Shown here: positions 31,877 to 64,000 of the stretch, piece by piece
Layout: every line of letters begins with the position of its first letter
Position numbering within the stretch: the first letter of the stretch is position 1
Source of the DNA: Oikopleura dioica
Taxonomy: Eukaryota > Animalia > Chordata
DNA length: 64,000 nucleotides
Direction: 5' to 3'
Assembly (NCBI GenBank): GCA_907165135.1
Contig: OU015568.1
Coordinates: forward strand, 7,936,001-8,000,000
Program-made: the position numbers and the translations under genes
The notes under the pieces: model-generated
Told to the model about the DNA's origin: nothing
What the model saw: only the letters and a program-made list of their open reading frames with translations
Databases searched by the model: none

Positions 31877-32866
31877 AACAACTGAATGTAAGACATTCAA
31901 TGTGTTACAAATCAGAAGATAAAAAAGAGTTGCTTTGTCAGAAAAGCGTGAGAAATGAAGAGGGAGATTTGGAGTTCAGCGAAATTTTGTGTAGTAGCTC
32001 TTGCTCGATGAGGACGACTGTTGAGATAGAACTCGTCGGAGACGGAAACGCACATGTGATTCTTGATACCTTGGAACATGGATGTAAAGGTACAGTAAAT
32101 ACCGCTGGTTTGGGACGCTCAAAAATCCTGCTAGTTTGGGACGGTCGGGCGAAATAAGGATCAAAGGCAAGCGCCCACGGCGAGTGTTTTTAAACTGACC
32201 GCTTTACCCCGAAAGCGAAAGTGGCGCCCGAGAGTCGAAAGCGAAAATCCTGCTGGTTTGGGACGCTTTCGTGAATTAGGACCGTCCCAGACCAGCGGTA
32301 TTTACTGTATATTTTTTAAGCAAAAGGCGGTAAATCATCTACGCAGTTTGGGGTCGTAAAAGGTTTTAAACATTGAATTTTAAAGGATATAAATGACAGC
32401 TCATAAATAATAATAATTAATAGAGACCCCGTGTGCGCTTGATGGTCAACGGGACGAAGACATTTGTAGACAGACTTATTCAATTGATGGCGTTGATGTC
32501 TACTGCCAATACTCGGATGAGCACCAGGCTTTCGATTGCTGCTGCTCTGGCAGAAACTGCAATACGCCAGAAGGTGAGATCATGATTGATATTGAGCACT
32601 GAAAAAATCATTCAGTCTGGGAAAACTGGTACACCCGGCAGCACAGAGGCGAAATCAACAAAAACTGTCAAGTGGACAATGGCAAAATAATCCTTCTCAG
32701 TCAGATTCTCGACGTTATCCTCATCTTCCTGATTGTCTTCCTTGTTGGCGTTTTAATCCGATGCATTGGCTGCGCATTGATAAGAGGGAAACAAATGCGC
32801 CTTGAACATAAAAATAAGAATTTGAATCCTAACAACGATCAAAATTCGCACGCGCTTTTATCCTGA
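31877..32866 (+). CDS. Activin/BMP type II receptor-like ectodomain, single TM, ~35 aa tail, no kinase domain
   Basis: Spliced exons 31877-32089, 32424-~32573 and ~32616-32866 give 12 Cys ending HGC...C...C...C...FDCCCSGRNCNT, then TM ILDVILIFLIVFLVGVLI and a stop. Start codon not resolved. Confidence 0.65.
32093..32307. mobile_element. Tc1/mariner-type MITE, 215 bp
   Basis: TIR CAGTAAATACCGCTGGTTTGGGACG / CGTCCCAGACCAGCGGTATTTACTG, TA on both sides, and an internal third copy of gctggtttgggacg. Confidence 0.92.
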
Positions 32867-33509: not shown

Positions 33510-35623
33510 AAGTTTTGGTCAGTTGCTTCTGATTTCAGCAAGCCTCGCGAGATGGGCCCGCAACTGACCCTAAATCGATTCCCCCGGGGATCAGCACCTC
33601 ATTCTTTTTATACCAATCAATTTTTGCAATATTGTGATTTATTTTAATTTAATTATCGAAGCAAAATTTTCAGAATAGGGAAACCGAAATTTTTAACAAC
33701 GATTGATCATCCAATAACTGTTTCCGCATAAGTTATGCGGCATAACCTTATCATTATACTATTTATAATCATAAAAATTATAAATAAATTATGTTGCAAT
33801 TACCGCCAACCGGAAAGTAATAAAAAGATGAGTGACAGAAAATAATCAGGTTAGCTTATACAACTAAAAAAATCTGACGGTAGGCAAGGTGATCAAAAAA
33901 AAAAAAATTTGAGGATTCAGTCCTGGTGGTGGTCATTACAGAAGAGTTTCCTCGAAATTTGTAATCTGATTGTTTTTCAGACGTTTTTAAAGGTTTAGGA
34001 CGGATCAATATTTTCTAGGGCAGTATTCGGTAGGAGATCGTAAATCCCCCTGAGATTCTGGAGGGAAGCAACAGGAGATATTCTTGGTAAAACACCACTG
34101 GAGCCAAAAAATCTCGATCAAAATTTAGGGTGTCGAAATGAGGCAAAGTCAAGTGTTTGAAAACTCATAAAATCATTTTCCCGTTTGTCATCGTGAACAG
34201 TTTCAGACCCAGTTCAATGTTTGGAGAGCTACTCTGACGGAAACAAGGTCAAGAACTTTTTCCTCGGAATTACGGAAAACAGGTCAGCCGTGAGTGTACG
34301 GAGAAATCGGGGCCAGTTTACGCAAGCTGCTCGTGTTCAAGGTCAGCATTCGGGGAAAGCGGTAAGCCCGGAAAATTGGAAAGTCTTGTAAAAATAGACT
34401 TTCTGGGAATAAAGGCCAGGAAAAAGAGTGTTGCATTTGAATGCAGTTAGAAATGCACCTGATTGCTGCTGATTGGTATCGCAGCAACGGTAATCTTCAG
34501 CTTCCGAATTTGAATTTCCTGTAGTCTCCTGCCGAGAAAGACCATCTACTCAGCTGTTGGAAAATAAATTTCTTTGAATCGTAGATATTCAGAGAAATTC
34601 TAGCGCTTTCTCCGTTCCAGCTGGAATTTATCGGTTTCAAAGAACTGCGGCGAGTTCAGAGGTTGATCCGATAATTCGCCAAATTCCGGAAAGATTTGAG
34701 TTTTGACCGAAGCAAATGATTTTATGGTTCTAAAGGAGATTTAGATTTGCGATTTGAGTTACAAATTTACGATCTTGGAACGTATTTGAGTTGAATTTGC
34801 AAGCTCTGTGGGAGCTACCTCGACCGGTTCGGGCAGCGATTTTCAAGAGTTCTTGGAAGCTGTCGACTGGAGTTTTGTTCAAAGCCGGAATGATTGAGAC
34901 GAAGTTTGGAAGATGAAAACTTGAACTGGATAGATAACTAATGATATCAAAAGTCGCCTAGAACACAGTCTCCCTCCAGGAACCTTGACCCACTTTCTCG
35001 GCTGGCCTTGAAAACACAAACGACCAGGCAGGAAATCTCGTGCACTAGATTCTTTCAATGTTGGCAACGGAAATAAAATGCGCAAAAAAAGAATAACCGT
35101 TTATAATATCGGTGAAGGGATTGTCGGATCACTGATTGGGATTCCGCTGAGCTGGAATTTGGAGCCTTTGGAGATTTGCGGTTCACACCTCGAGACTCGT
35201 GTGGGGCGGATTATTGATTTCAGGCATCTAAGAGAGCTCAAGAAAGGAATTCCAAAGCGGTATTTTATGAATTGTCGAACGAGTTGAAAGCAATGGTAAA
35301 TACTGTAGACAGCAGGCCGATTTTCGTGTAAGGATACGGATTGTCAAGGCAATATTTCACGAATTTCCTCCAATAAAACTGTAACTTCTCCATCTGCAAA
35401 ATATCTTTAAAAATCTGACCCAATTTCTTAGCTACCTTCTATCTGTTCATATTTGAACAGGAACAGCTTATCTATTGTACGTATCGTTATCGTATCTACA
35501 TCTGCTTCGGGGGTACCAAGAATCTACTGTTGATCTTTATCTTCTCAGAAATTCGGCGATGTCACGCTGAGCCCGAGCGCGGGGAAACGGCTGGCAAGAG
35601 CGCCGCGGCGCAATTTCGGAACC

Positions 35624-35630
35624 TATAAAA
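35624..35630 (+). promoter_or_regulatory. TATA box of PIM-like kinase copy 1
   Basis: TATAAAA 114 nt upstream of the ATG, after a GC-rich stretch. Conserved in copy 2 at 56090-56096 (minus strand). Confidence 0.6.
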
Positions 35631-35743
35631 TCGGCCTTGGAAAAAGAGGCAACCATCAAATCTCAAACAAAACAGTTTCAAACAACAAGAACTCGAGCAA
35701 AAGCACACAGAGCAAGAAAACAGTCAGAGATTCAAAAGGAAAA

Positions 35744-36592
35744 ATGTCCCGAAACAGCGAATCTGGCTACTCCTCCGATGAAAACATCGTCTCTCCTCAA
35801 GAACAGATCGCCAAAGACCAGCGAAGATTCGCCAAGACTTACGAAGTCGAGGAAGAAATGATGAAATCTGCCAACGGGATCATCTACACAGGCTTCCATC
35901 ACAAGACCGAGCAGCGAGTCGTCATCAAGCAGATTCCACGAAACAAGATCTCCGAGTTCAAGCAAGTTCAAAACCGACCCGTCCCGAGCGAAATCTACTA
36001 CCATTTCAAGGCAGCCCAAGCTTCCAACTTCGTCGTGGCTCCTCTTGATTGGTACGAACGGCGATCTTCCTTCGTCCTTGTCATGGAGCGCCTCGATGGC
36101 TACGTCGACCTCTTCGAATTCGCCAACAAGAACGGGGCAATCAACGAGGAAGCGGTCCGCATCATTGCCGGCCAGTTGATCACCTGCTGCATGGAACTCG
36201 CCCGCGCCGGCATCTGCCACCGCGACATCAAAGACGAGAACATCCTTATCAACCCAGAGACCCTCGAGATCCGCCTGATCGACTTCGGATGTGCTAGCCG
36301 CGACGGAGCCTGCTACACAACTGCACGTGGAACTCCAAACTACTGGCCCATCGAATTCTTCCAGAACCGTCTTCTCAGCGCGGAGCCACTCACTGTCTGG
36401 AGCATCGGAGCTGTCATCTACATTCTTCTTACCGGAAACTGGCAGACCGATGGACGAGGCCAGATGCAGCGAAACTTTCTCGCCGAGCGCAGCCTTTCTC
36501 CCTTCACAGTCGCCCTCATTGACCGGATGTTCTGCCCTGACCCAATGTCTCGAATCACGATGGAAGAAATCATCGCTTCTGGATGGTGCTAG
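35744..36592 (+). CDS. Intronless PIM-family Ser/Thr kinase, copy 1 (282 aa)
   Basis: VVIKQIPRNKISEF, LDWYERRSSFVLVMER, HRDIKDENILI, LIDFG, GTPNYWPIE and VWSIG match the PIM kinase pattern. Confidence 0.92.
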   Translation: MSRNSESGYSSDENIVSPQEQIAKDQRRFAKTYEVEEEMMKSANGIIYTGFHHKTEQRVVIKQIPRNKISEFKQVQNRPVPSEIYYHFKAAQASNFVVAPLDWYERRSSFVLVMERLDGYVDLFEFANKNGAINEEAVRIIAGQLITCCMELARAGICHRDIKDENILINPETLEIRLIDFGCASRDGACYTTARGTPNYWPIEFFQNRLLSAEPLTVWSIGAVIYILLTGNWQTDGRGQMQRNFLAERSLSPFTVALIDRMFCPDPMSRITMEEIIASGWC

Positions 36593-36793
36593 ACTCATTT
36601 CTTCAAACAGACACTACCCTGCCAAGATATTTATTTGTACATTTTGCCATTTACTTCTAAAAGTTCTTCAATTGATAAAACGACAATAAAAGAAAATCAT
36701 CAAAAACATTGTTTTTTTCCATATTTCCGTTTGCAAGTTGTATTGTTATATTTTAGCCTATAAGTTGTACAAATAAATAGAGTTCTAGGGAAA

Positions 36794-38615: not shown

Positions 38616-41600
38616 ATGAGTCGGTCTTATGCGAGTCTCAATTTGCCAAATTTATCGATAGACGAGTCGGACACCTTTGAAAATCCGAATTTCTTGAGCC
38701 AGACATTCAGCAGAGAGCACTTGGTTTCAAAGCCACAGGAGACGTTCAGCGTTGCCGAAGATAGAAATGTTTTGAATGCCGAAGAACTGAATGATGCCTT
38801 TGCTGGAATTTACAGGGATCATGCGGCGAGCGCTTGTCTTGACGAAGAAGTCAAACTCTATGCTGATGCATCGGGGCAGGCAGGAAATATGCTGCACGAA
38901 CTGGGCAGGCAGTTGGAGAATGCTGGAAGAAAAGCGTATGAAATCAAGGTAAAGAAACTTGAAAATTCCTGTTGTTAAATATAACAGGCTTTTTTTAACG
39001 TTGCACATAATTGGTGGACCGTTTTTGATGGTGTTAGAGTCGAGATATTTCAATTCTCTCTTTTGCACCTTGTTTAAGAGGGTCTGTAGTATGTTAAATA
39101 AGCTTTTGGTGTCGGCACCATCACTGGTGGTGGAGTAATCACGACATCCAAAATACACTAAAATTATAGGAAAATCAAGATGACGTCATTACTCCAGCAC
39201 CAACACTGGTGCTGGCACCAAAAACTATCATAATTATTTCGTATACATGTAGGAAACATCCCTGTATGATAAAAAAGAATATATGGTGCTTTTAAGGACT
39301 TTTCAAAATTTCTCCCACCATTCACGCTTTGCCGCGAATTCCCAATGAATGAGGTCATTACTCCACCACCACTGATGCTGCCGACACCAAAAGCTTATTT
39401 AACATACTACAGACCCTCCCCTACATGGTGCAAAAGAGATAACCAAAATATCTCAACTCTAACCCGCTGAAAAGCGCTCCACAAAAATGGTGCAACGTTA
39501 AAAAAAACCTGTTTATATCATTAGAATCTCTCCAGTGAGATCATCGAAGAAGCAGCTACTTGGAGACTCTTACAGGGAATTATCCAAAACAAAGACTCCG
39601 AAGAAATGGAAAACTTTGCCGAAACTGCCATGTATTCAGAGCGCGACGCCAAGGCCAACTGCTACCGAGCGCACCCCGAACTTCGCCACTTGCGTGCCGT
39701 TCTCGACTGGTTAGAGCACAGCGCTAAATTTGAAGATAACCACTTTACAAATCGAATAACTCCCGACAACACATTCCATCAAGTAAAGTTGGGCAAGATC
39801 GACGTTGATCTCAATCCTGACGTCGCGAAGAAAGATCTTCATGTTTTGGACCAGCAAGCATTGACCAAATTCAACACCGATATCTTTCGCATGATCCGCT
39901 CTGGTGATCTCACTGGAGCCATCGAAAAATGCCTCAATTCTGGTCAAGCATTCAAAGCGGCCATCATGGAAGGAGCTACGATGTATCACAATCCGAAAAT
40001 CGAGGACGAGCATGCAGAGGGCGAAATTGAAGGTGTCGAAATGCGAGATATTTGGAAGAAATCAGCCTTGGCATTTTGTGAGAGCCCTCAAATTCCGCTT
40101 ATTGAGCGAGGAATCATAGGAGCTGTTTGTGGATTCAGTGAGCCGCTTCTTCAATTAGCCAAGAGTTGGGAAGATCGACTCTGGGCGCTTCTCACGGCCG
40201 CGATCGATGTCATCATCGAACAGTCAATTACGGAAAGCATGATGGGAGCTCGAGAGACTTTACCAGATTCATTCTGGAAACAAAATCAACCCGTTGAAAA
40301 CTTGCTGCAAAAAGCTGCGGCTGGAGGCAACTCGCAGGAAAAGAAGACAATCTTCAGAAAAATACAGGAATTCCTGATCCTTGACGATTTGGAAGGTCTT
40401 GGAAGCCATATCGAAACAATAGACGCAAAGAACAAACACCAAGCGAGATTTCTAGCACACTTGTCGACTGTTCTTCAAAGCGTTGGCGTTGGATCTGTTA
40501 CCACGGCTTGCATTGAGTATGTTTTTGATTAATGAACAGGTGGTAAATTTCTTTAGAAATTACTCGAGAATGCTGGTCTCCTCTGTCGACCCTGATTGCC
40601 GACCACATGAGGATGCGCTTCTAGTCGCTCATTATTGCCGACTACTTGACGAAGAATCAGCATCCGGACTTTACTCTCAATTGCTCGTGAATCTGAGCTG
40701 CATGAATCAAATCCATCGTCAGAAGTTGATCGATTTAGCGAATGAGGTCTCATATTTTTCTCTCGCTAGTTTCTCATCTTTCTTCTAGGCTGGGCTTTGT
40801 ATAAGTTCTATCACGAAACAAGCGGCTGTTTCGATGCAGCAGACGAAATCGGGAGAAACTGATTTGGATGCTTTGGAAATTTTACTCGCTAATAAGGATT
40901 TATCGGTAACCTTTTCTTGAAAGCTTTTGGATATCTTTTTCTTTTAGTCTTCGTTCAATATCGCCTGTAGTCTGATCAAAAACATGATTGTTATGAAGAA
41001 CGACGAAGCTGCACGAATCGCGGTGAAGAAAATGGAAGATGCTGGTGCTAATGAAATCAAGAAAAATGAACCATTCGTGGCGATCCGAGCGCACTTGGAA
41101 GCCATGGACATGTTTAGCAAGTGGAGCAGACTCTTCAATAACTCCACGCCGGAGGAAATTCAGGAAATCACATCCGGCTTGACATTTGTGCAGGTAAATC
41201 CATTCTGCTTCATCAACAAGTTATCAACCTCTGATAGAGAGTGACGATCGAATCGAGAAACGAGCAGAAAAGATCTGACATGTTGAAATCAGCGCGAGAG
41301 CTTCAGTCGCTGGCTACGAGAATCGATGAAAAAGTTGTACAGATTCTTACAACGAACGCGGAATGGTTCGACAACGATGCCAAAGCGTATGAAGCCATTT
41401 CTAGAATTTTGTCTGATACTTTTTAGTGTTATTATCCCCCTCCTCGTCGTAGCATCGATGAAGGCTCAATTGGGATCGAACCTGCCAGAGAAAGCGATCA
41501 AAACAGTGAATATGCTCATGAGCTCCAAATACGGCTTGTTCAACTTTCTCAACACTCAAACAGCTCGAAGCGTACTCGACCTCGCCGCAGAAGCTAACTC

Positions 41601-41631: not shown

Positions 41632-41774
41632 GCGTTTTTCAATTACTGATTCCCTTTTGAAACCTTGTGAAAGTGTGTGAAGTTCATTTTTAGACCAAAT
41701 TAAACAAACTGCCACTTTAGAAAACTCTCAATAATTGGACATTTTAGAGTTTTTAGAATAATCGGAATTCGAAG

Positions 41775-44700
41775 ATGTTTATTTACATGAGCAAAAAGAT
41801 CGCCGTCCCAGACGGGGCGACGCTAAAAGCCCTTGCTTGGAATAAAACACATGGGTTCATCGCCGCCGCGGGAGTCGATGGATTCTTAAAAGTCCTCAAG
41901 CTTGAATCTCCAGACGATACTCCAGAAAACAGGATAAAGGGTCTATCTGCCCCTTCGAATTTGGACATGAATGAACAACTTGATGGACACTCCACGACTG
42001 TAAAGATTGTCATCTGGAACGAGGTCTACAGAAAACTCACAAGCGCTGACTCCCGCGGTCGAATAATCGTTTGGGTCATGTACGACGGGCGGTGGTACGA
42101 GGAAATGATTAATTACAGGCCGAAGACGACAGTTACCTCCATGCAGTGGTCGCCCGAGGGGGAGAGAATAGCGATCGCATATGATGATGGGCAAGTCATC
42201 GTTGGTTCAGTTGACGGTCAGCGAGTGTGGGGCAAGTCAATCGGTGATTCTCCAGTCACACATGTTAATTGGTCACCTGAAGGAGACAAACTGCTCCTGG
42301 TCCTTGCTGGAACAGAAGTCATGGTACACGATGCCAACGGAGACCAACTATTCAAAATGAGAAGCATTCCTCCGGGTCAACGTGTCTTCTCAATCGCCTG
42401 GTATGCTGACGAAATCCACTTTTTAGCACCGAGCAAAAACACGCTTGTCATAACATTTATGTCTGGTAAAGCCGTGTTACTTGAAAATGAGTCAGATCCG
42501 AAGCCAGAGATGATCGACACTGGATTAGAAGAAGTCAAAGATGTCAAATTCTCTCCCGACGGTCTTTATATCGCCTTTGCTGGCAATAAGCGAAACTCAC
42601 CAAAGCTTCCGTATTGGTGCGAGTTATTTAACACAGCCGGAGCACACTTACGTTCACTAAAACTTCCCGGACCAGTGGAATCGATTTCGTGGGAGAGATT
42701 ACGACTAGCTGTCAGTTACAAGGACTCGATATATTTCGCGAATCTGAGGCCTGATTATTTATGGGGCTATTGTGCAGAGTCCCACACACTGGTGTACGCA
42801 TTCCAAGGTGATCTTGGTACTCCAAAGATTATGTTCTGGAATACGAAAACCGGCGGTCGTCATTTGAAGACTATCGAGTCGCTGAATCACCTTGGCACCG
42901 CTGGAGACCACGTTGTCATTTGCAAGAGCGCTGTCAACTCACAACTATCGCTGCTGAACTCGATCGGGGCTGAGCTTGATCAAATCACTGTTCCATTCTT
43001 TGTCAAGTTCCTCGCTGTTGGCAAAAACTTCGCGGTCGCTGCAAGTATAGACAAAGTGTTTGTTTGGCGGCTGAAAATTGCGGAAAAGTCAAGCATCGGC
43101 CAGTATGCTGCCGTCGCTGGACAACAGACGAAAATGATCGACGTGGATCGAGAGGGAAATGATGAAGTCACGGCGATCTGTGCGAGTCAAAGTCATTTCA
43201 TCATCGCCAGAGATAGCGGCAAACTCTTACGTTACGGCTTGCCAAGTATGGAGCTCGAGCAAGAGTTCCAGTTTTCTGGTGGCACTCCTTTAGACATAAA
43301 GCTCAACTCCAACTCCTCAAAAGTATCAGTAATTGATCATCAAGCGTTGTTGTATATTGTTGACCTGGATGCACGTCAAGATGATGGGAGCAAAGGTGAA
43401 CAGACGAACTTTGATAGGAAAGAATGCTGGAATGTCATGTGGGCCAGTGACGACTCCAGTCAATTGGCGCTGAATGAAAAGACAAAGCTTACGATATTCC
43501 ACGACAAGAAACATGAAGAACCTATCGTTACATCTGCGTTTGTCTCCTTGATGCGAGATCACGAAGTTGAATGTGTACTGGTTGATGAAATCATGCGGCG
43601 TCCAGAAGATCCACGCCCTACGGACATTTTTGTCCAGGAATCAGAAACGCTGAGGAATGTGCGAGAAACCATCGAAAAAATAGGAATCGGCCAAGCGAAA
43701 GAAATGGTTCTCAAAAACTCGAGTCCTCGGCTATGGCGAATACTTGGTGAAGCAGCGATGGAAAAGCTCGAACTCAAGACGGCAGAAGAGGCGTTTATTC
43801 ATTGCAAGGACTATCTGGCGATTCAAGTTATCAAAAAGCTGAAGAATTATAGCGACGATACACTGAAGAGTGCAGAGATTGCGGCATTCTTCGGGAGGCA
43901 TGAAGACGCTGAGAATTTATACAGATCAATTGATAGGTGATAAATATTTTCCCCCTAAAACTTACTCAAAAATCAGGTTGGATCTTGCAACAGAGCATCA
44001 ACGTCTAATTGGAAATGAACAAAAAGTGTTACAGATTTTAAAAACAACTCATGACAGTGCGTTGTCTGACGATACTCAACTCAGAAAGTCTTGTAAAAAT
44101 ATTGGTATCAAAGTAAGTCGCCAGCTGCTTTTTTAGAGCTCATTATTTTTTAGTCCTTTTACGATAAAAATTGGGATGTTGCTTGTAAATTTCTCAATGA
44201 TGCTGGTGAATTTAAAAAGGTATAATTTCGACAAATGAAAATCGAATTTAATAGAATTTTAAGAACATTAGAGCTCATTACATGGCTGGCGATTGGCAGG
44301 GCATGATGAGAATAGAGCAAGCTCTCTTTGATGGAGCTGAAGAACTTGTCGAGTGTGGTCGTCTCTATCGCAGCCTAGGCTTATCAGAGCAAGCAATCAA
44401 TGCGTTCATTCGAGCTCACAGACCCGACTTGGCATGTAAGACTGCTGTAGAGCTTAATGATTGGGAAAAGGCTGTTAAACTTGCAGAGGCTCATAAACTT
44501 GATGATGTTTCTGGTTTGCTTGAGAAGAAAGCCGCGTCGCTGCTGGACGCTAAGCTAGGTAAGTCTTTATTGACGAAGACTATTACTACTTATTTTGTTT
44601 TGCAGACTGCCAAGCGTCTCAATTATACAGCAAAGCGGGCAACTTCATCAAGGCAGCTCAGCTCCTCTTCAAAGTCGCCGCCAAGGAGGGCTCACTCGCT

Positions 44701-45517: not shown

Positions 45518-45750
45518 GTATAAACAGGTTTTTTTTTATACTGACGCAAATTGGTGGAGCGTTTTTGAATACCTTCCACTCAACATTTTTCATTTCTCTC
45601 TTTTGGAGAGTAATGAAGAGTGTCTGTAGTATGTTAAATAAGCTTTTGGTGTCATTTGCACCATTGGTGGTGGAGATATGACGTCATCATTCTCGAGGTC
45701 TCTATTCATAATGCATTTTGATGACGTCATTACTCCACCATCATTACTGC
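45518..45750. mobile_element. Truncated relative of the NUP107-intron MITE
   Basis: Shares tataaacaggtttttttta, aattggtgga.cgtttttga, tctgtagtatgttaaataagcttttggtgtc and gatgacgtcattactcca with 38983-39513. Confidence 0.8.
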
Positions 45751-54763: not shown

Positions 54764-55127
54764 GGTTCCACCAAGAAGGCGTAACTAAAGTGAAATTTTA
54801 TCATGTCTTATTGGTAGTGTGAGATCTTTAAGCAGGTATAAGAGAAGGAACGACTTTGTATATCCGGGCGCTTGCAAGTGAGATCACATGATGCTGAAAA
54901 TTACCTGTTTTTTCTGTTATATTCTCTGGCTGCAAAAAGAATAAATAAAACCCCAGGAAATTTTTAATATTAGACTAACGTAGAGAGCTATTACAACGTG
55001 AAATAAACTCTGACACTTGTGGTGCTTCAAGGTCTTTATTTTTCTATCAATTGAAGAACTTTCAGAATAAAGGCAAATATGTACAAATAAATATTTTGTT
55101 GGAATAGTAATTTTTGAAAGCGTGAGC

Positions 55128-55976
55128 TTAGCACCATCCAGATGCCATGATTTCTTCCATCGTGATTCGAGACATAGGATCAGGGCAGAAGATGCGGTCA
55201 ATCAGAGCGACTGTGAAGGGAGAAAGGCTGCGTTCGGCGAGGAAGTTTCGCTGCATCTGGCCACGACCATCAGTCTCCCAGTTTCCGGTAAGAAGAATGT
55301 AGATGACAGCTCCGATGCTCCAGACAGTGAGTGGCTCGGCGCTGAGAAGTCGGTTCTGGAAGAATTCGATGGGCCAGTAGTTGGGAGTTCCACGGGCAGT
55401 TGTGTAGCAGGCTCCGTCGCGGCTAGCACATCCGAAGTCGATCAGTCGGATCTCAAGGGTCTCGGGGTTGATGAGGATGTTCTCGTCTTTGATGTCGCGG
55501 TGGCAGATGCCGGCGCGGGCGAGTTCCATGCAGCAGGTGATCAACTGGCCGGCAATGATGCGAACCGCTTCCTCATTGATTGCCCCGTTCTTGTTGGCGA
55601 ATTCGAAGAGGTCGACGTAGCCATCGAGGCGCTCCATGACAAGGACGAAAGAAGATCGCCGCTCGTACCAGTCAAGAGGAGCGACGACGAAGTTGGATGC
55701 TTGGGCTGCCTTGAAATGGTAGTAGATCTCGCTCGGGACGGGTCGGTTTTGAACTTGTTTGAACTCGGAGATCTTGTTTCGTGGAATCTGCTTGATGACG
55801 ACTCGCTGCTCGGTCTTGTGGTGAAAGCCTGTGTAGATGACGCCGTTGGCAGATTTCATCATTTCTTCCTCGACCTCGTACGTCTTGGCGAATCTTCGCT
55901 GGTCTTTGGAGATTTGTTCTTGAGGAGAGACGATGTTCTCATCGGAGGAGTAGCCGGACTCGCTGTTTCGAGACAT
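55128..55976 (-). CDS. Intronless PIM-family kinase, copy 2 (282 aa)
   Basis: Intact ORF with 5 amino-acid differences from copy 1. Confidence 0.92.
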   Translation of the reverse strand: MSRNSESGYSSDENIVSPQEQISKDQRRFAKTYEVEEEMMKSANGVIYTGFHHKTEQRVVIKQIPRNKISEFKQVQNRPVPSEIYYHFKAAQASNFVVAPLDWYERRSSFVLVMERLDGYVDLFEFANKNGAINEEAVRIIAGQLITCCMELARAGICHRDIKDENILINPETLEIRLIDFGCASRDGACYTTARGTPNYWPIEFFQNRLLSAEPLTVWSIGAVIYILLTGNWETDGRGQMQRNFLAERSLSPFTVALIDRIFCPDPMSRITMEEIMASGWC

Positions 55977-57423
55977 TTTTCTTTTTGAATCTCTGACTGT
56001 TTTCTAGCTCTCAGTGCTTTTGCTCGAGTTCTTGTTGTTTGAAACTGTATTGTTTATGATTTGATGGTTGCCTCTCCTTCCAAGAGCGATTTTATAGGTT
56101 CCGAAATTGCGCCGCGGCGCTCTTGCCAGCCGTTTCCCGCGCTTGGGCTCAGCGTGACATCGTCGAATTTCTGAGAAGATAAAGATCAACAGTAGATTCT
56201 TCGTACCCCCGAAGCAGATGTAGCTTCGATAACGATACGTACAATAGATAAGCTGTTCCTGTTCAAATATGAACAGATAGAAGGTAGCTAAGAAATTGGG
56301 TCAGATTTTGAAAGATATTTTGGAGATGGAGAAGTTACATTTTTATTGGAGGAAATTCGTGAAGTATTGCCTTGAAAATCCGTATCCTTACACGAAAATC
56401 GGCCTGTTGTCTACAGTCACTTACCATTGCTTTCAACTCCTTCGACGGTTCATAAAAAACCGCTTTGGAATTATTTTCTTGAGCTCTCTTAGATGCCTGA
56501 AATCAATAATCCGCCCCACACGAGTCTCGAGGTGTAAACCGCAAATCTCCAAAGGCTCGAAATTCCCGCTCAGCGGAATCCCAGTCACTGATCCGACAAT
56601 CCCTTCACCGATATTATAAACGGTTATTCTTTTTTTGCGCGCTTTATTTCCGTTGTCTGCCTCGAAAGAATCTAGTGCACGAGATTTCCTGCCTGGTCGT
56701 TTGTGTTTTCAAGGCCAGCCGAGAAAGTGGGTCAAGGTTCCTGGAGGGAGACTGTGTTCTAGGCGACTTTTGATATCATTAGTTATCTATCCAGTTCACG
56801 TTTTCATCTTCCAAACTTCGCCTCAATCATTCCGGCTTCGAACAAAACTTCTGTCGACAGCTTCCAAGAACTCTTGAAAATTGCTGCCCAAACCGGTTGG
56901 GGCAGCTCCCACAGAGCTTGCAAATTCAACTCAAATACGTTCCAAGATCGTAAATTTGTAACTCAAATCGCGAATCTAAATCTCCTTCAGAACCATAAAA
57001 TCATTCGCTTCGGTCAAAACTCAAATCTTTCCGGAATTTGGCGAATTATCGGATCAACCTCTGAACTCGCCGCATTTCTTTGAAACCGATAAAATCCAGC
57101 TGGAACAGAGAAAGCGCTAGAATTTCTCTGAATATCTACGATTCAAAGAAATGTATCTTTCAACAACTGATTCGATGGTTTCTCTCGGCAGGAGACCACA
57201 GGAAATTCAAATTCGGAAGCTGAAGATTACTGGTGCTGCGATATCAATCAGCAGCATTCAGGTGCATTTCTAACTGCATTCAAATGCAACACTCTTTTTC
57301 CTGGCCCTAGTTCCCAGAAAGTCTATTTTTACAAGACTTTCCAATTTTCCGGGCTTAGCGCTTTCCCCGAAAGCTGACCTTGAACACGAGCAGCTTGCGT
57401 AAACTGGCCCCGATTTCTCCGTA

Positions 57424-57584
57424 CAGTGGGTTGCGCAGGTAGTTGCCCCCTAAAGTGCGGGTGGAGGGGCAACCAATCCTGCAATCACTTTGAGCGAGTC
57501 TAGAAAGAAACAATAGAAAAAGCGCGGGCAAAGGGGCAACCAAAGCTGCAATCGCAAAGGGGCAACCAACTGCGCAACCCACTG
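57424..57584. mobile_element. Tc1/mariner-type MITE, 161 bp
   Basis: TIR CAGTGGGTTGCGCAG(GTA/TTG)GTTGCCCC, TA duplication, and an empty site (single TA) in the paralogous copy at 34297-34298. Confidence 0.95.
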
Positions 57585-58029
57585 TACACTCACGGCTGAC
57601 CTGTTTTCCGTAATTCCGAGGAAAAAGTTCTTGACCTTGTTTCCGTCAGAGTAGCTCTCCAAACATCGAACTGGGTCTGAAACTGTTCACGATGACAAAC
57701 GGGAAAATGATTTTATGAGATTTCAAACACTTGACTTTGCCTCATTTCGACACCCTAAATTTTGATCGAGATTTTTTGGCTCCAGTGGTGTTTTACCAAG
57801 AATATCTCCTGTTGCTTGCCTCCAGAATCTCAGGGGGATTTACGATCTCCTACCGAATACTACCCTAGAAAATATTGATCCGTCCAAAATTTTCCAAAAT
57901 CTCTGAAAAACAATCAGATAACAAATTTCCAGGAAACTCTTCAGTAATGACCACCATCAGGACACAACCTGCATACATGTACTCATATTATTTCAAATCA
58001 CCTTGCCTGCTTAAAATTTACGCATTGAT

Positions 58030-58799
58030 GGTTGTAGGCGGTCACGAGGAGACTTTTCTCCCAGTTCGTATTTTCGCGAACGAGGAGACTTTTCTCCCAG
58101 TTCGCCGAAATTCGAACGAGGAGACTTTTTTCTCCCACTGACCACGTTCTGAGAATTTTTGAACGAGGAGACTTTTTGCAAGTATTTTCTCTAGATGAAT
58201 TTCACTGCGTAGATTCTACGCCGTCGAAGATGAATGTTCGACTGATTGTCTACAAAAGATAATTGGAGAAAAAACTTATTCTTCAGAGGATAAGGAAGAA
58301 AATAGGTTGGACAGGAGAAAATTATAAAATCTAATTGCCCCCAACCACGGGGCTTCGCCCCTTAGGTCCTAAAATGCCGAGGTCTAGTCTAGGGTTACTT
58401 AGGGTTACCTTCAGTAACCCTAACTAACCCTAGCCTATCCCCCTCGGGTAAGTTTGTTCTGTCATTTCGCCCAGTGCCCCCTAACCCTAACCTCAAATAT
58501 AAGAAAATGCTCCCAACTGCAAATTATTCCTCAAAAGCCGGGATTTGGCGAGCCCAAAGAGTGCCTATGCGCTTCGCGCCTGTCTTTTAGAAAACCTCGT
58601 AGAAAATGTGTCATATTACCAATCAACATAACTACGGAAAATGTTTTCAAAAAAGTCTCCTCGTAACCGCGATTCAGTTGAGAAATGAACGGGGAGAAAA
58701 AAAGTCTCCTCGTTCGCATTCTGACGAACTAGGAGAAAAGTCTCCTTGTTCGCGAAAATACGAACTGGGAGAAAAGTCTCCTCGTGACCGCATATCACC
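58030..58799. mobile_element. Non-autonomous foldback DNA transposon, 770 bp, 8-bp TSD
   Basis: TSD gcattgat at 58022-58029 and 58800-58807; TIRs of >100 bp built from repeated cgaggagacttttctccc units. Confidence 0.9.
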
Positions 58800-59262: not shown

Positions 59263-60227
59263 CTACATTGACGGCACATTATCTTTTATCCAGGAAAGTG
59301 CATGCGTGATAGATGCGTAAATTGTTGGTGCTCCTTCTTCTGCGCACCCTCTGCTTCGATTGACGACTCCAACAAGCGTTGCTTTTCCATCAACATCGCA
59401 GATCAGGGGACCTCCGGAGTCTCCCTTAATTAACATCAACTATTGTTCATAAAATATTAACTCACGTGACAAGCGCCAGTATTAGCATCAGTGAGTCCAT
59501 TGCCGTCAAAGTCAGGTAAGCCGGCGCAAATGTCATCTTCATGAAGCGTTTCATAAACTGAGTTGTTTCGGCAATATTCTTGGTCCAGCAGATATATGCC
59601 CGCCGACTTTAGTGTCTTGGATGGCTTGTTTTTTGAGGTTTTCCCAAAACCAGCTATCCAACATTCAGTTCCGTGGGCGGGTACTTCCGATGGTAGACAA
59701 GGAGCAGATACGATTTTATCCACGTCAGCAGATTCAATGGAATCGGTAAACTTGATCAAGCACCAGTCGTTGTTTTCTCCAGTATGATTTGGGTGAGCAA
59801 TGAAATCCGTCGATGTGAGTTTGAATTCAGAGACTATGAAATATAATTAAAGCTGTCAAGAATATTATACTATTATCCGCGTTATCTTACCGTCAACTTT
59901 GCCCGTCAAATACGTCGACTTTGAATCGCCGAAGAAAGCATCAACCTCGCTGAACTCGTCTCTGCAGCAATGAGCTGCTGTAATGACTGTATTCTTTTCC
60001 AGTACACTTCCTCCGCACAATGTCGAATACGAACCTCCTTTGACCCTTTTGAAACCAAGGCTAACAAACCAGGGCCAGTCCGAAGACTTCGCATTTGCTC
60101 CCCCAATGATTTTACCCGTTGAAAATCCCGCTTGAGCATTACAAGATTCCAAAGGTGGAATTTGATGTGACGTCGCAACGAAGGGCCCGAGTGTTGTGAC
60201 AGGCGTGTCACAGTTTATTTCAGGAAT
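59263..60227 (-). CDS. S1 family serine protease, catalytic exons; upstream exon(s) not found
   Basis: K|IIGG activation site, LCGGSVL..TVITAAHCC, NNDWCLIK and GACH|GDSGGPL, so the His/Asp/Ser triad is intact. First visible exon starts at an AG acceptor and has no Met. Confidence 0.92.
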
Positions 60228-60999
60228 CTAGGACAAAGGGATTAGCAGCCCGCTAGAAATAGAACGCGGCAGGAGAGCCTAGTAACCAATGGCAGGGACT
60301 CCCAGGACGCAGCAAAAGGTGACAAAGGCGCCCGAGAGCACCTGGTTTCGAGCGGGTGCACCGGAATCACGCAGGTTCACTCTAAAGGTTCTTAGCCTGC
60401 AGCTAAAACCTAAATCGAGAAATTTAAAATAGAGGCTTTTTCTCAGCAGAAGCATTACCAATAAGACTCCTAGCTGAATCAAAAGACTCTAGGTAGACCA
60501 TCAATCGATGCTACCGCTTATTTCACCAGTCCCAGGACTATAAACCTCTTCAGCCTCACGCAGTGCGTCTAAGGCTCAAGCTTCCTCCATTAGCGGCCAC
60601 ACCGGTGCGCCAAGCCGAGCCAATCAGCTCTCAGGCTACTCTGAAGGAATCAAAAAAAAAAAGAGAAAGAAAAAGAGAATCTTTCCTTAAAGAAGTTCGG
60701 AATTCTTCTTCCCCAGTTCAGCGGGACTCACTATTTACTCCTCTTCTTCAGACATGATCGAAGAAGCCTTCGTTAAGGCAGCGGAGGAATTCGGCCCCAA
60801 ATGGGGAGTGGCTTTGGACTCAGATCCTACACGCCCAATTGAAAACTCTCAAAGAAGAATCCAAACCCTCGACGAGGATATTTCCAGGAAAGGATCTCAA
60901 AAGATAAACCTCAGAATCCCTCGGCTAGCCCAGAAGGAAGAATCTTTTCCCCATTCTTAGAATTTTTTTTGATCCTCTCAAAGAAACACCCTTCTGCTC

Positions 61000-63962
61000 A
61001 TGAGCCAGATAAACTGGAAAAGACTCTCCCGTACGGCAATGGCGACTCCGAAAATAGCACCTAGGCTCTTAAGACTCTACGTCCCTGCGGATGCGAACGA
61101 GCCTCTATCCAATCACAGATTGGTTTTCGATCGCCAAACTCCTTCAAAGGCGAGATTCAACTTCTCAGAACTCTCCTCTTGGGCCCAAATCATATTTACG
61201 GCACCATCAGGGAAAGAGTCACTCTGGATAGCCCACCAAAGCAACGAACCCGCCTTCATCCTCTCCATTATAATGGAAGAAATTGCAGAAGCGGAGAATG
61301 ACCGCCCAGACTCTTGGCTACTGGAATCCAAGCCATACCCGTTCAAGCCATCGGAGAGTCCCACAAAGTTGTTGAAGCAAGAATCGTTGGGAACAAACGA
61401 CGCTCCTAGCGTCAAACTGGACGACCACGAAACCATCTTCAGCCTTTTAGAAGCGCTAAAGATAGGAAGCACTAAAGGCCCGCTCAGAATCGTGGCCCGA
61501 AATTCAGACTCCCACCCGGCTCCGAACCTTCAAAAATCAGAAGAAAAGGGCAGACTCTTTCCGTTCAGTATCCTGGAAGAACTAAAGAACTGGGAAAAAA
61601 TCAACGGCCAAGACTGGTTTTGCGAATGGGAAGGCTCCGAGAATCAAGACATTCTAGATGAAGGTTTCTGGCATCACGTCTGCCTCCGAGTGATCAGGGA
61701 AAGTAAAGTCAGGACTCAAGCGAACTACGAAAGACCAAGCTTCACAGACGAAAACTGGCTCCGAAGACTCATAAAAAAGGGCCTCGAAACGATCTTCGAC
61801 TCGATGCCAAGACCAGACGCTTTCATGAAGCCGCAGGAGCTCCTGGACTCACTCAAAATGCTGAAATCGATTCACAGTGACTGGCACGAAATTTGCCACC
61901 AGAGAAACGCCTGGCTGGAGCTCAAAGAAGACAGAGACACCCAGTGGGCAAGGAAGGGACCAACAAATGCAAATGCATGGATCATCGATGTGATCGGTGA
62001 ATATGCCTCAGTAGACTCTGCGACGCCGAACCCGACGCCGCTGACTAAGATTCTTACGCCATTGCTGCTTCATTTGGTGCACAAGCAACTCGCCCAAGAC
62101 TCCGTCATCGGACAAGACGGAAGCTGCAAAGAAATGCCCACACAGTGGCACACGGACTGGAAAGAACTGAAAGACTCCAATTCGCTGAAAAAGTGGCTAG
62201 AATTAGCAGCAAAGAAGGTTAATCCAATTAACACGACGGTCAGAATCAAAGAAGTCGGCAAAGGAAACTCCAACTGGATTCTCTGGATCCCCTACAAAGT
62301 GGTCCCCCAATTATGGGTCATTAATTACGGCGAGGACTCTGAGCATCTCAGAGAAAGATCCCTACTCTCAGTGGCAGCCCACCCAGCACTGGTACCACTA
62401 GAATCTGAAGCGCTTGAGAAGCTGGCCTCGGAGCCGTGGACGACTCAAAACGTCAAGAAATGCATCGCGGCGTTCCAGAAACCAACCAGAAATTATTACG
62501 CCTCCGGAGCCTGCATAGTCGGAATCAACCGACCCTTCCGAACTCAGAAAATCATCCTCGAAATCATCGCCAAAGTCGTCAAAGACTCCAAAGCCCACTC
62601 CCATTTACGATCAGTCGAACACAATTTGGGAATCTTAACAACCGGCTGGAATTGGGCAAACGGGAAAAGATTCAGCCCGGACAAAACCCTCGACAGCTTC
62701 ATCAGCACTTGGATGCGAAAAAGAGAAGAAGTCACAGGAGTCACGAGACTCAGATTCCTCCATTCACGCCCCGAGAAGCGCGAAAGATCTTGCGAATGGC
62801 CAATGTGCGGAGAAGCCGAGGCAGATTCAACTTGGTGCAAAACACACCAAGGATTCCGAGAACTGAAAGAAGCCCGACAGCAAAACTGCTCACCAAATTG
62901 CCAAGAAAGAAACGGCTTTGGCCTAATCAAGCCCACCCAAGAACACACCAGAATGGCTATCGACAGCGAAGAATGGCAGCAAACCTTTCTGAAGCTCTCA
63001 GAAACATTCAAGACAACAACGCTGAAAGACGCCGACGAAGAACTCATCGGGAGAATCCAAAACACAGCGGTGGAAGGTTTTGACTCGATTCTTGAGGCCT
63101 GAAATCTACGGCAGTCCTTTTCCAGGGAGAAAACGACACAACGTCGAACATTGCCAAAGGACTCAAAAAACTCGGCGGAGTCATAGAAAGACCAAGATTC
63201 GAAAGACCAGAAGCAGCAGGAATTGTCATCTATCACGCGGGTCTGGAAAGATGCGGAGGCAAATTCGATGCTTTCGTAGTTGGAAACACCACGGCCCCGA
63301 AGAATCTACACCTCCAAGAACTCGCTAAATCCATCGCAAGCGAATCTGGAGACAGCTGGTCGGAAGTGGCGAGACTCATCAAGGAACAGACATTCCAAAA
63401 GGACACTGTTCTGGTCCTCCCAGCCCAAGAAGATGCCAAAGCCCTAGAAAGAGCCCTCAGCACTTGGTCCGCCCCGTACGTCAAATTCGTCACCCAAGGC
63501 CTGATGAAGGATTTTCACCAAAAGCTTCGAGGAGACAAAAACCCAAGATTTTCGGGCCTTTGGGAAGTTTTTCAAATCGCTTGCGATTGCGGCTATGAAT
63601 CCAGATTCACCCCATGCTGGGCACACCCTAGGGTGGCGGAAATGATGGCCAGATGCTGCAACGGCCTCGACTCTAGAAATCGAGCTGTCTCAAAAATAGA
63701 CAAGCTCAGACTCAGGGCTAACAGAACAACCTGGGAAAACGTCACAGACAAGTCCCACGATTTGTCCCAGAATGCTCCATTCACGACTCACTTCAGAGAC
63801 ATCCTCTTAGACGGAATCAAAGCGGCGGAGAATCTAAACATGGACGAGGGAGCAACTGCCGGAGCCGAGAATCTCTTCCCAAACACTTGGACTCAGAACC
63901 TCCAGACCATCGAGGAAAGATTCGCACGAATGAATATGACCAAAACCCGAGAGAATAACTAG
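61000..63962 (+). mobile_element. Unclassified element ORF: 699 codons plus 288 codons joined by a single -1 shift at 63096 (~987 aa); element probably begins ~60240 and continues past the window
   Basis: Intronless, A/C-rich sense strand, Trp/Cys-rich protein with a C-x4-C-x9-C-x2-H motif, lying antisense upstream of the protease acceptor. No RT, integrase or transposase motif recognised. Confidence 0.55.
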
Positions 63963-64000
63963 GAGAAATAGAAATCTGAATCCGCTTCTAGACTCTATTA

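Follow-up and report, generated by a model that had tools for sequence, protein, structure and literature searches.

A mobile element has inserted into a coding exon of a trypsin-like protease gene of Oikopleura dioica, starting at position 60224 of the 64,000-nt window (the whole stretch of DNA analysed), and carries a spliced gene for a large protein of uncertain function. The insertion point, 60223/60224, falls within a codon. The downstream exons of the interrupted gene occupy 59457-60223 on the minus strand, with Pfam Trypsin matches at E 7e-12 and 8e-14 and an intron joint (59833>59891) seen in run X2. The empty site occurs in four of four runs, as contigs (X1, X2, X5) or as reads (X9) that run on past 60223, and beyond that point the empty allele holds an open protease frame, read by hand as G-W-Q-I-S-K-G-S/L-P, that extends the trypsin-like exon. 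As the empty-site sequence is alike in DNA and RNA, the site lies inside a coding exon and not in an intron as the initial annotation had offered; the AG it took for a splice acceptor lies inside the element's own end, and the left boundary it had set at 60240 moves to 60224. Only nine X9 reads could be placed, all less than 95% alike and covering the protease exon alone, and so X9 is uninformative on the element itself. The flank at 60210-60223 resembles a motif inside the element at 60511-60525 (11 of 13 nt), which may be chance or a target preference.

The filled junction is present in X1, in a contig spanning 60168-60253 at a depth of 47.1, and the same run carries the empty site. At this locus X5 has the empty allele only (the depth of 78.6 in the bin 60185-60221 is that one contig), yet it carries a copy that differs from the element by 16 substitutions over 3,209 nt (99.5% identity), and so in X5 the element must be located elsewhere. 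Depth in X1 is 87.6 in the element interior against the 47.1 of the junction, an approximately twofold ratio suggestive of about two copies that are nearly identical, and another left flank was detected among the loose ends listed. There is then a presence/absence polymorphism with a sharp boundary, together with multiple dispersed copies as seen in several left contexts, a multi-copy end and an X5 element lacking this junction. The element has been recently mobile and disrupts one allele of the protease gene. Its mobile nature, suspected from the outset, is confirmed by the insertion polymorphism, the repeated end and the many lineages of the family.

The left end is formed by a terminal repeat unit of about 266 nt (60224-60489, plus strand) that begins GAATCTAGGAC and is multi-copy, with an X1 depth of 324-968 against about 83 in the flank. 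Contigs have loose ends before 60224, 60236 and 60239 and behind 60489, among the 21 of 41 such ends that were listed. The end reads GAATC on the plus strand and ...GATTC on the minus strand, and so departs from the TG...CA rule of LTRs. Elsewhere a recurring, slightly variable sequence precedes the unit (at least two X2 contigs and at least three X5 contigs), and another recurring sequence, which includes an inverted copy of the 60511-60525 motif, follows it (at least one X1 contig and at least two X2 contigs). Neither recurring context occurs in the window beyond chance, and the terminal pattern has no occurrence in viral or prokaryote contigs. Such fixed neighbours fit an inverted terminal repeat (ITR) with an extension, split direct repeats (A1-B1A2B2) or a long terminal inverted repeat (TIR), the orientation not being given by the contigs. 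Downstream of the repeat unit is a 5' leader (60490-60753, plus strand), partly common to a commoner sister subfamily (60592-60898; X1 depth 157-220, about twice as deep) that is about 90% alike in parts of the leader and first exon and then diverges. Apparent internal deletions in contigs probably reflect this diverged subfamily, which could itself be a helper element. The element body is rich in GANTC and in A on the sense strand (A 0.32, T 0.19), and runs over 60224-64000 and past the window, contigs extending beyond 64000 by about 665 nt in X1, 1,378 nt in X5 (unbranched) and 62 nt in X2.

Two long open frames recognised earlier, one of 700 codons (61000-63102) and one of 288 codons (63096-63962), are borne out, as is their union in a single protein. 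At the break the contigs of all four runs checked, from two studies, carry one extra base relative to the window and the frame reads through, while the single-ORF homologs P0004 (1,004 aa) and P0005 (1,061 aa) cover both halves (E 3e-19 and 2e-18 to P0002). The X1 contig has no substitution against the window over 60834-64000 and one gap, at the frame break; X1 may be the source sample, and so independent support for the read-through comes from X5 and the homologs. Since the runs read through, the frameshift of the window is almost certainly an assembly error and a programmed frameshift is rejected.

The gene itself is not intronless, as had been supposed. Run X2 skips the 96 nt of a GA-AG intron at 60888-60983 on the plus strand (CAG/GAAAGG ... 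TCAAAG/, slashes marking the joints), and so joins the second upstream ORF in frame, adding 44 codons from an ATG at 60754 to give a protein of about 1,037 aa. The evidence of splicing is one 3,508-nt contig in that run, the intron being spanned by contigs of X1, X4 and X5. Although listed as 'DNA?', X2 behaves as RNA, in that it also skips the protease intron and leaves uncovered 4 of 30 bins, all of them outside the protease exons and the element. An AG/GAA context for GA donors, matching that of the element, is reported for O. dioica in PMC7072748. Coding exon 1 (60754-60887, plus strand; 44 codons and 2 nt) is the best conserved part of the protein, with 54% identity over 37 aa to the N-terminus of P0005, P0014 and P0015 against about 25% elsewhere, and tblastn alignments of P0004 and P0005 begin at 60754. 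P0015, a 50-aa gene call of the P0005 lineage, ends just past the exon 1 homolog, which suggests that the intron is old. Coding exon 2 (60984-63962, plus strand) has one frameshift near 63100, in the window only, and five of the seven ORF variants among those listed are synonymous. The initial annotation envisaged a multi-ORF element, but the first upstream ORF (60497-60757) matches none of the family proteins compared at better than E 0.14 and probably belongs to the leader, and the further frame said to be open to the window edge comes down to plus-strand frames of 20, 3 and 9 codons. The shadow frames of the ORF are not conserved, and no overlapping pol or YR frame is present.

A search of 1.84 billion representatives returned 11 matches at E 0.001 or better, the nearest, at 77% identity, being a gene model of O. 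dioica. All five named clusters (P0003, P0004, P0005/P0014 and P0007) consist of O. dioica models that bear no functional name, and the remaining homologs are JGI, ENA or Logan fragments from metagenomes or assemblies. Among the O. dioica copies are the loci CBY11129, CBY10926, CBY37833 and OKI g17236/7. In the tree, built from 10 of the 13 aligned rows with P0002, P0007 and P0013 omitted for overlap or length, there are at least five deep lineages, most pairs of which share 22-31% identity. Across five lineages the ORF has stayed open, and W, G and P residues are conserved together with the motifs TP(S/C)WAHP and LDGIKA, the latter invariant in the three lineages compared; a Glu follows the HP motif in two of the three lineages that reach it. 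The description of the protein as Trp-rich holds (3.7% of the first ORF half). That of cysteine clusters as family features does not: the C-x4-C-x9-C-x2-H and CSPNC cluster (62788-62910, plus strand) is confined to the lineage of P0001, P0003 and P0006 and missing in four of five lineages, CDCG and CC being missing in P0004 and P0005. No significant family match was obtained in Pfam (best E 0.018), PHROGs (best E 0.0026, over 34 aa in P0008), NCBIfam or the PDB sequences (best E 0.059), and there was no Rfam match at gathering score. From ESM Atlas came a caspase-like lead for P0002, weak at 0.84, and no usable match for P0005. Searching exon 1 for other fusions found P0005 alone (1 of 34 candidates), P0002 found none of 2,812 longer proteins, and no homolog among those examined is fused to an RT. 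A literature search with Repbase and the main O. dioica transposable element papers outside its scope gave no description of the family, which may then be named already. It is likewise absent from the accessible parts of PMC4402516, PMC8008620, PMC3266345, PMC5240408, PMC11067885, PMC8547959, PMC3783388, PMC7072748 and PMC13498776.

Structural prediction offers a single lead. P0005 was modelled twice with AlphaFold, each time at poor overall confidence (mean pLDDT 43.6 and 50.8) but with two better alpha/beta domains, of which that at residues 468-600 reaches pLDDT 80-90 in part. The C-terminal domain (about 735-845) matches SIV integrase at Z 5.9 (rmsd 3.2, 81 aligned), a score level with those of Argonaute PIWI (5.9), Spt6 (5.8) and UvrC (5.7), and Prp8, Pelota and uS11 are tied as well. 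Its homolog in the element would lie at approximately 63170-63670 on the plus strand, corresponding to an RNase H/integrase-like domain modelled over P0005 residues of about 735-900. In each of the four VIA runs a lentiviral integrase core came first or shared first place (Z 5.6-5.9), and in one of them the match reached integrase residue 164, so taking in the helix after TP(S/C)WAHP (Z 5.9, rmsd 3.8, 96 aligned), although a Z under 8 may mean just a common arrangement. With the full P0005 model, HIV-1 RT heads the Foldseek list at E 5e-3, falling to rank 7 with the second, trimmed model, and on PDB and BFVD nothing reached E 0.001 or better. In the rough alignment of the three to five lineages that span the domain there is no conserved acidic residue at the two aspartate positions or modelled strand ends, and a D-D-E/D triad is not conserved. 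The protein is likely to be without working enzyme sites. No YxDD RT was found for this ORF by Pfam or hhalign, and a profile test for internal repeats was negative. By eye, P0005 residues 372-412 look to us like a Ty3 RT thumb, and we take the order of thumb-like, RNase H-like and integrase-like parts to recall that of Ty3 Pol. An N-terminal beta-beta-alpha-beta domain (61170-61420, P0001 residues about 57-140) has, on the same kind of reading, a ubiquitin-like or retropepsin-like look, which no tool backed.

The explanation we prefer, tentatively and with rather less than even confidence, is that of a repeat-bounded retroelement whose protein is an enzyme-dead derivative of Pol and which is moved in trans. 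Transcription would start in the terminal repeat, the unspliced RNA may serve as the transposition template and the spliced RNA would yield the protein, possibly a non-catalytic scaffold that binds nucleic acid or recruits particles, with RT and an integrase or recombinase supplied in trans by Tor or DIRS elements. The polymorphic empty site, the X5 element elsewhere and the near-identical X1 copies favour such an origin, as does a repeat unit that elsewhere has constant but different neighbours on either side, in the manner of repeat-bounded retroelements (compared with the structures in PMC3266345, PMC3783388 and PMC8547959). So too do the A-rich sense strand, the recurrence of the integrase core in VIA, the Foldseek rank of HIV-1 RT, the persistence of the ORF with mostly synonymous variants, the want of an all-acidic column at the modelled strand ends, and the thumb likeness, the last judged by eye. 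Against it, hhalign of the family with 6 Ty3 Pols, with Ty3 plus 12 caulimovirus-type Pols and with 3 DIRS pol/gag/YR sets gave probabilities of at most 0.7%, with reversed controls no worse than the family and a positive control at 99.8%; the family profile has 13 sequences (Neff 2.5), and as both profiles are shallow the test is weak in both directions. The models are also poor and their Z scores below 6 tied with other folds, no Foldseek hit is as good as E 0.001, the left end lacks TG...CA, and an apparently conserved intron would be no less in keeping with a DNA element. A close comparison is with the Tor (Ty3/gypsy) LTR retrotransposons, which according to PMC4402516 are repeat-bounded, expressed and recently and polymorphically inserted in O. 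dioica. The present element shares host, repeats, recent polymorphic insertion and expression, and may have an integrase-like fold in the C-terminal third of its protein, but differs in its end, in one spliced ORF without a profile match to Ty3 Pol, and in having no recognisable gag, RT, env or catalytic residues. Among coding non-autonomous retroelements, the LARD and TR-GAG types are likewise mobile without intact enzymes, whereas here a 1,037-aa ORF is kept under apparent selection across five deep lineages.

Less probable than the dead Pol derivative is an undescribed cut-and-paste DNA transposon, in which the 266-nt unit would be a long TIR and the 1,037-aa protein a transposase whose active site departs from the standard. 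The DDE transposons MuDR, P and Ginger have long TIRs and spliced transposases, and a single ORF of around 1,000 aa, interrupted by a 5' intron and encoding an RNase H-like core towards the C-terminus, would sit well among these. Recent mobility, the Glu after the HP motif, the invariant LDGIKA and a second context behind 60489 that might represent the inner boundary of a right TIR all point the same way. However the D-D residues of DDE enzymes are not conserved, no Pfam transposase is matched, and what lies beyond the repeat in X2 and X5 is a recurrent sequence with minor variation, as would not be expected of a simple TIR.

It is also doubtful, and very slightly more so, that the protein is the ORF1 or Gag equivalent of an autonomous retroelement of DIRS, Ngaro/PAT, Odin or Penelope type, with the enzyme ORFs past 64000. 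At least 1.4 kb more of unbranched sequence in X5 leaves space for these, and the fixed neighbours of the repeat would fit an ITR with extension or A1-B1A2B2, much as in DIRS1-like and Ngaro/PAT elements; PMC3266345 gives DIRS ITRs of 66-316 bp and rE of 9-75 bp. Elements of the DIRS1-like, Odin and Penelope-like types occur in O. dioica (PMC3266345, PMC5240408 and PMC8008620). Unlike DIRS1-like and Ngaro/PAT elements, 60224-64000 holds no RT, RH, MT or YR, and the three DIRS elements compared, with gag ORFs of 373-506 codons stop to stop, show no similarity. An overlapping pol or YR frame, conserved shadow frames and a homolog fused to RT are all wanting, and the target and the left-end candidate junction share no base. 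Neither an RT plus GIY-YIG ORF (Pfam) nor a hammerhead ribozyme (Rfam, gathering score), as in Penelope-like elements, was matched. The suggestion of an ORF1/gag or virus-like insert in the initial annotation finds neither gag similarity nor a relative in viral contigs, the sole fold signal being RNase H/integrase-like. Near-complete DIRS1-like elements (gag, RT-RH-MT and YR by motif reading) were seen in L069, L070:3334-6536 and L071, contigs of three bacterial MAGs, one of 1.5 Mb labelled Nitrospirales; these are probably eukaryotic contamination.

The composition of the element is unusual in the pentamer GANTC, of which there are 70 sites in 3,777 nt (18.5/kb) against 4.6/kb in 1-59000, the density increasing at the boundary. 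In the first half of the ORF there are 39 sites, where synonymous shuffles give 24.1 +/- 2.9 and codon shuffles 12.6 +/- 3.0, and the excess is present in all three frames. Three of four host ORFs have no such excess, the fourth (41757-43937) having 18 against 11.5 +/- 2.2. GANTC ranks top of 32 palindromic words both in the element (70 versus 24) and in L001, a metagenome relative of another lineage (29 versus 12; 17.8/kb). None of two Ty3 loci and none of three DIRS loci is enriched, and so an origin from the DIRS adenine methyltransferase is rejected. An excess of [DE]S dipeptides is found in P0001, P0003, P0005 and P0019 and not in P0004, P0008, P0006, P0010 or P0011, and given this unevenness the trait may not cover the whole family. 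Speculatively, the GANTC excess could be a self-mark read by the element's protein or a partner; the preprint 10.64898/2026.05.21.726589 mentions neither GANTC nor Oikopleura in its accessible part. It is improbable, though conceivable, that the element represents an undescribed class of animal transposon without a canonical RT, DDE or tyrosine-recombinase site, which starts at GANTC, has GANTC in all frames and whose 1,037-aa protein would read the mark so as to pick out and mobilise its own DNA or RNA.

It is very improbable that mobility comes from the ends alone, the gene being either cargo of host origin, captured or domesticated, or a viral derivative that became integrated: splicing, signs of purifying selection and the lack of an enzyme motif would suit this, but the named homologs are all nameless O. 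dioica models and the rest fragments, two models of an unplaced scaffold divide the Okinawa copy between them, the composition is unlike that of host genes, and viral contigs and PHROGs hold no relative. A spliced transcript does exist, as the initial annotation would have expected of a host gene, but that identity fails since the locus is a polymorphic exon-interrupting insertion. A Helitron was rejected, CTAG not being terminal and there being no RepHel match.

Other repeats are evident nearby. An inverted duplication of about 2.7-3 kb, 94-96% identical, joins window positions 33920-36680 and 55042-57963, both copies holding an uninterrupted kinase ORF that we take to be PIM-like, and one copy having a short inverted-repeat insertion at 57421-57587. 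A MITE-like element at 58030-58799 has 102-nt arms (91%) and a very high-copy core with TTAGGG-like repeats, its depth reaching 25,600 against about 60-130; a 778-nt skip there in three of four runs suggests polymorphism. Further inverted-repeat (MITE-like) families are at 38983-39517, 45519-45749 and 32086-32314.

About 44% of the repeats predicted for the Okinawa genome of O. dioica are unclassified (PMC8008620), and the present family is an active coding example of the unclassified repeats of this animal, with a defined left end and a gene-disrupting insertion. A restriction-site-like pentamer, GANTC, is four-fold enriched in two distant members and shifts dipeptide use. If the protein is a transposase, its active site would be of an unfamiliar kind; if it is a dead Pol kept for a long time, the element would follow a parasite-of-a-parasite strategy in which an enzyme has been turned into a scaffold.
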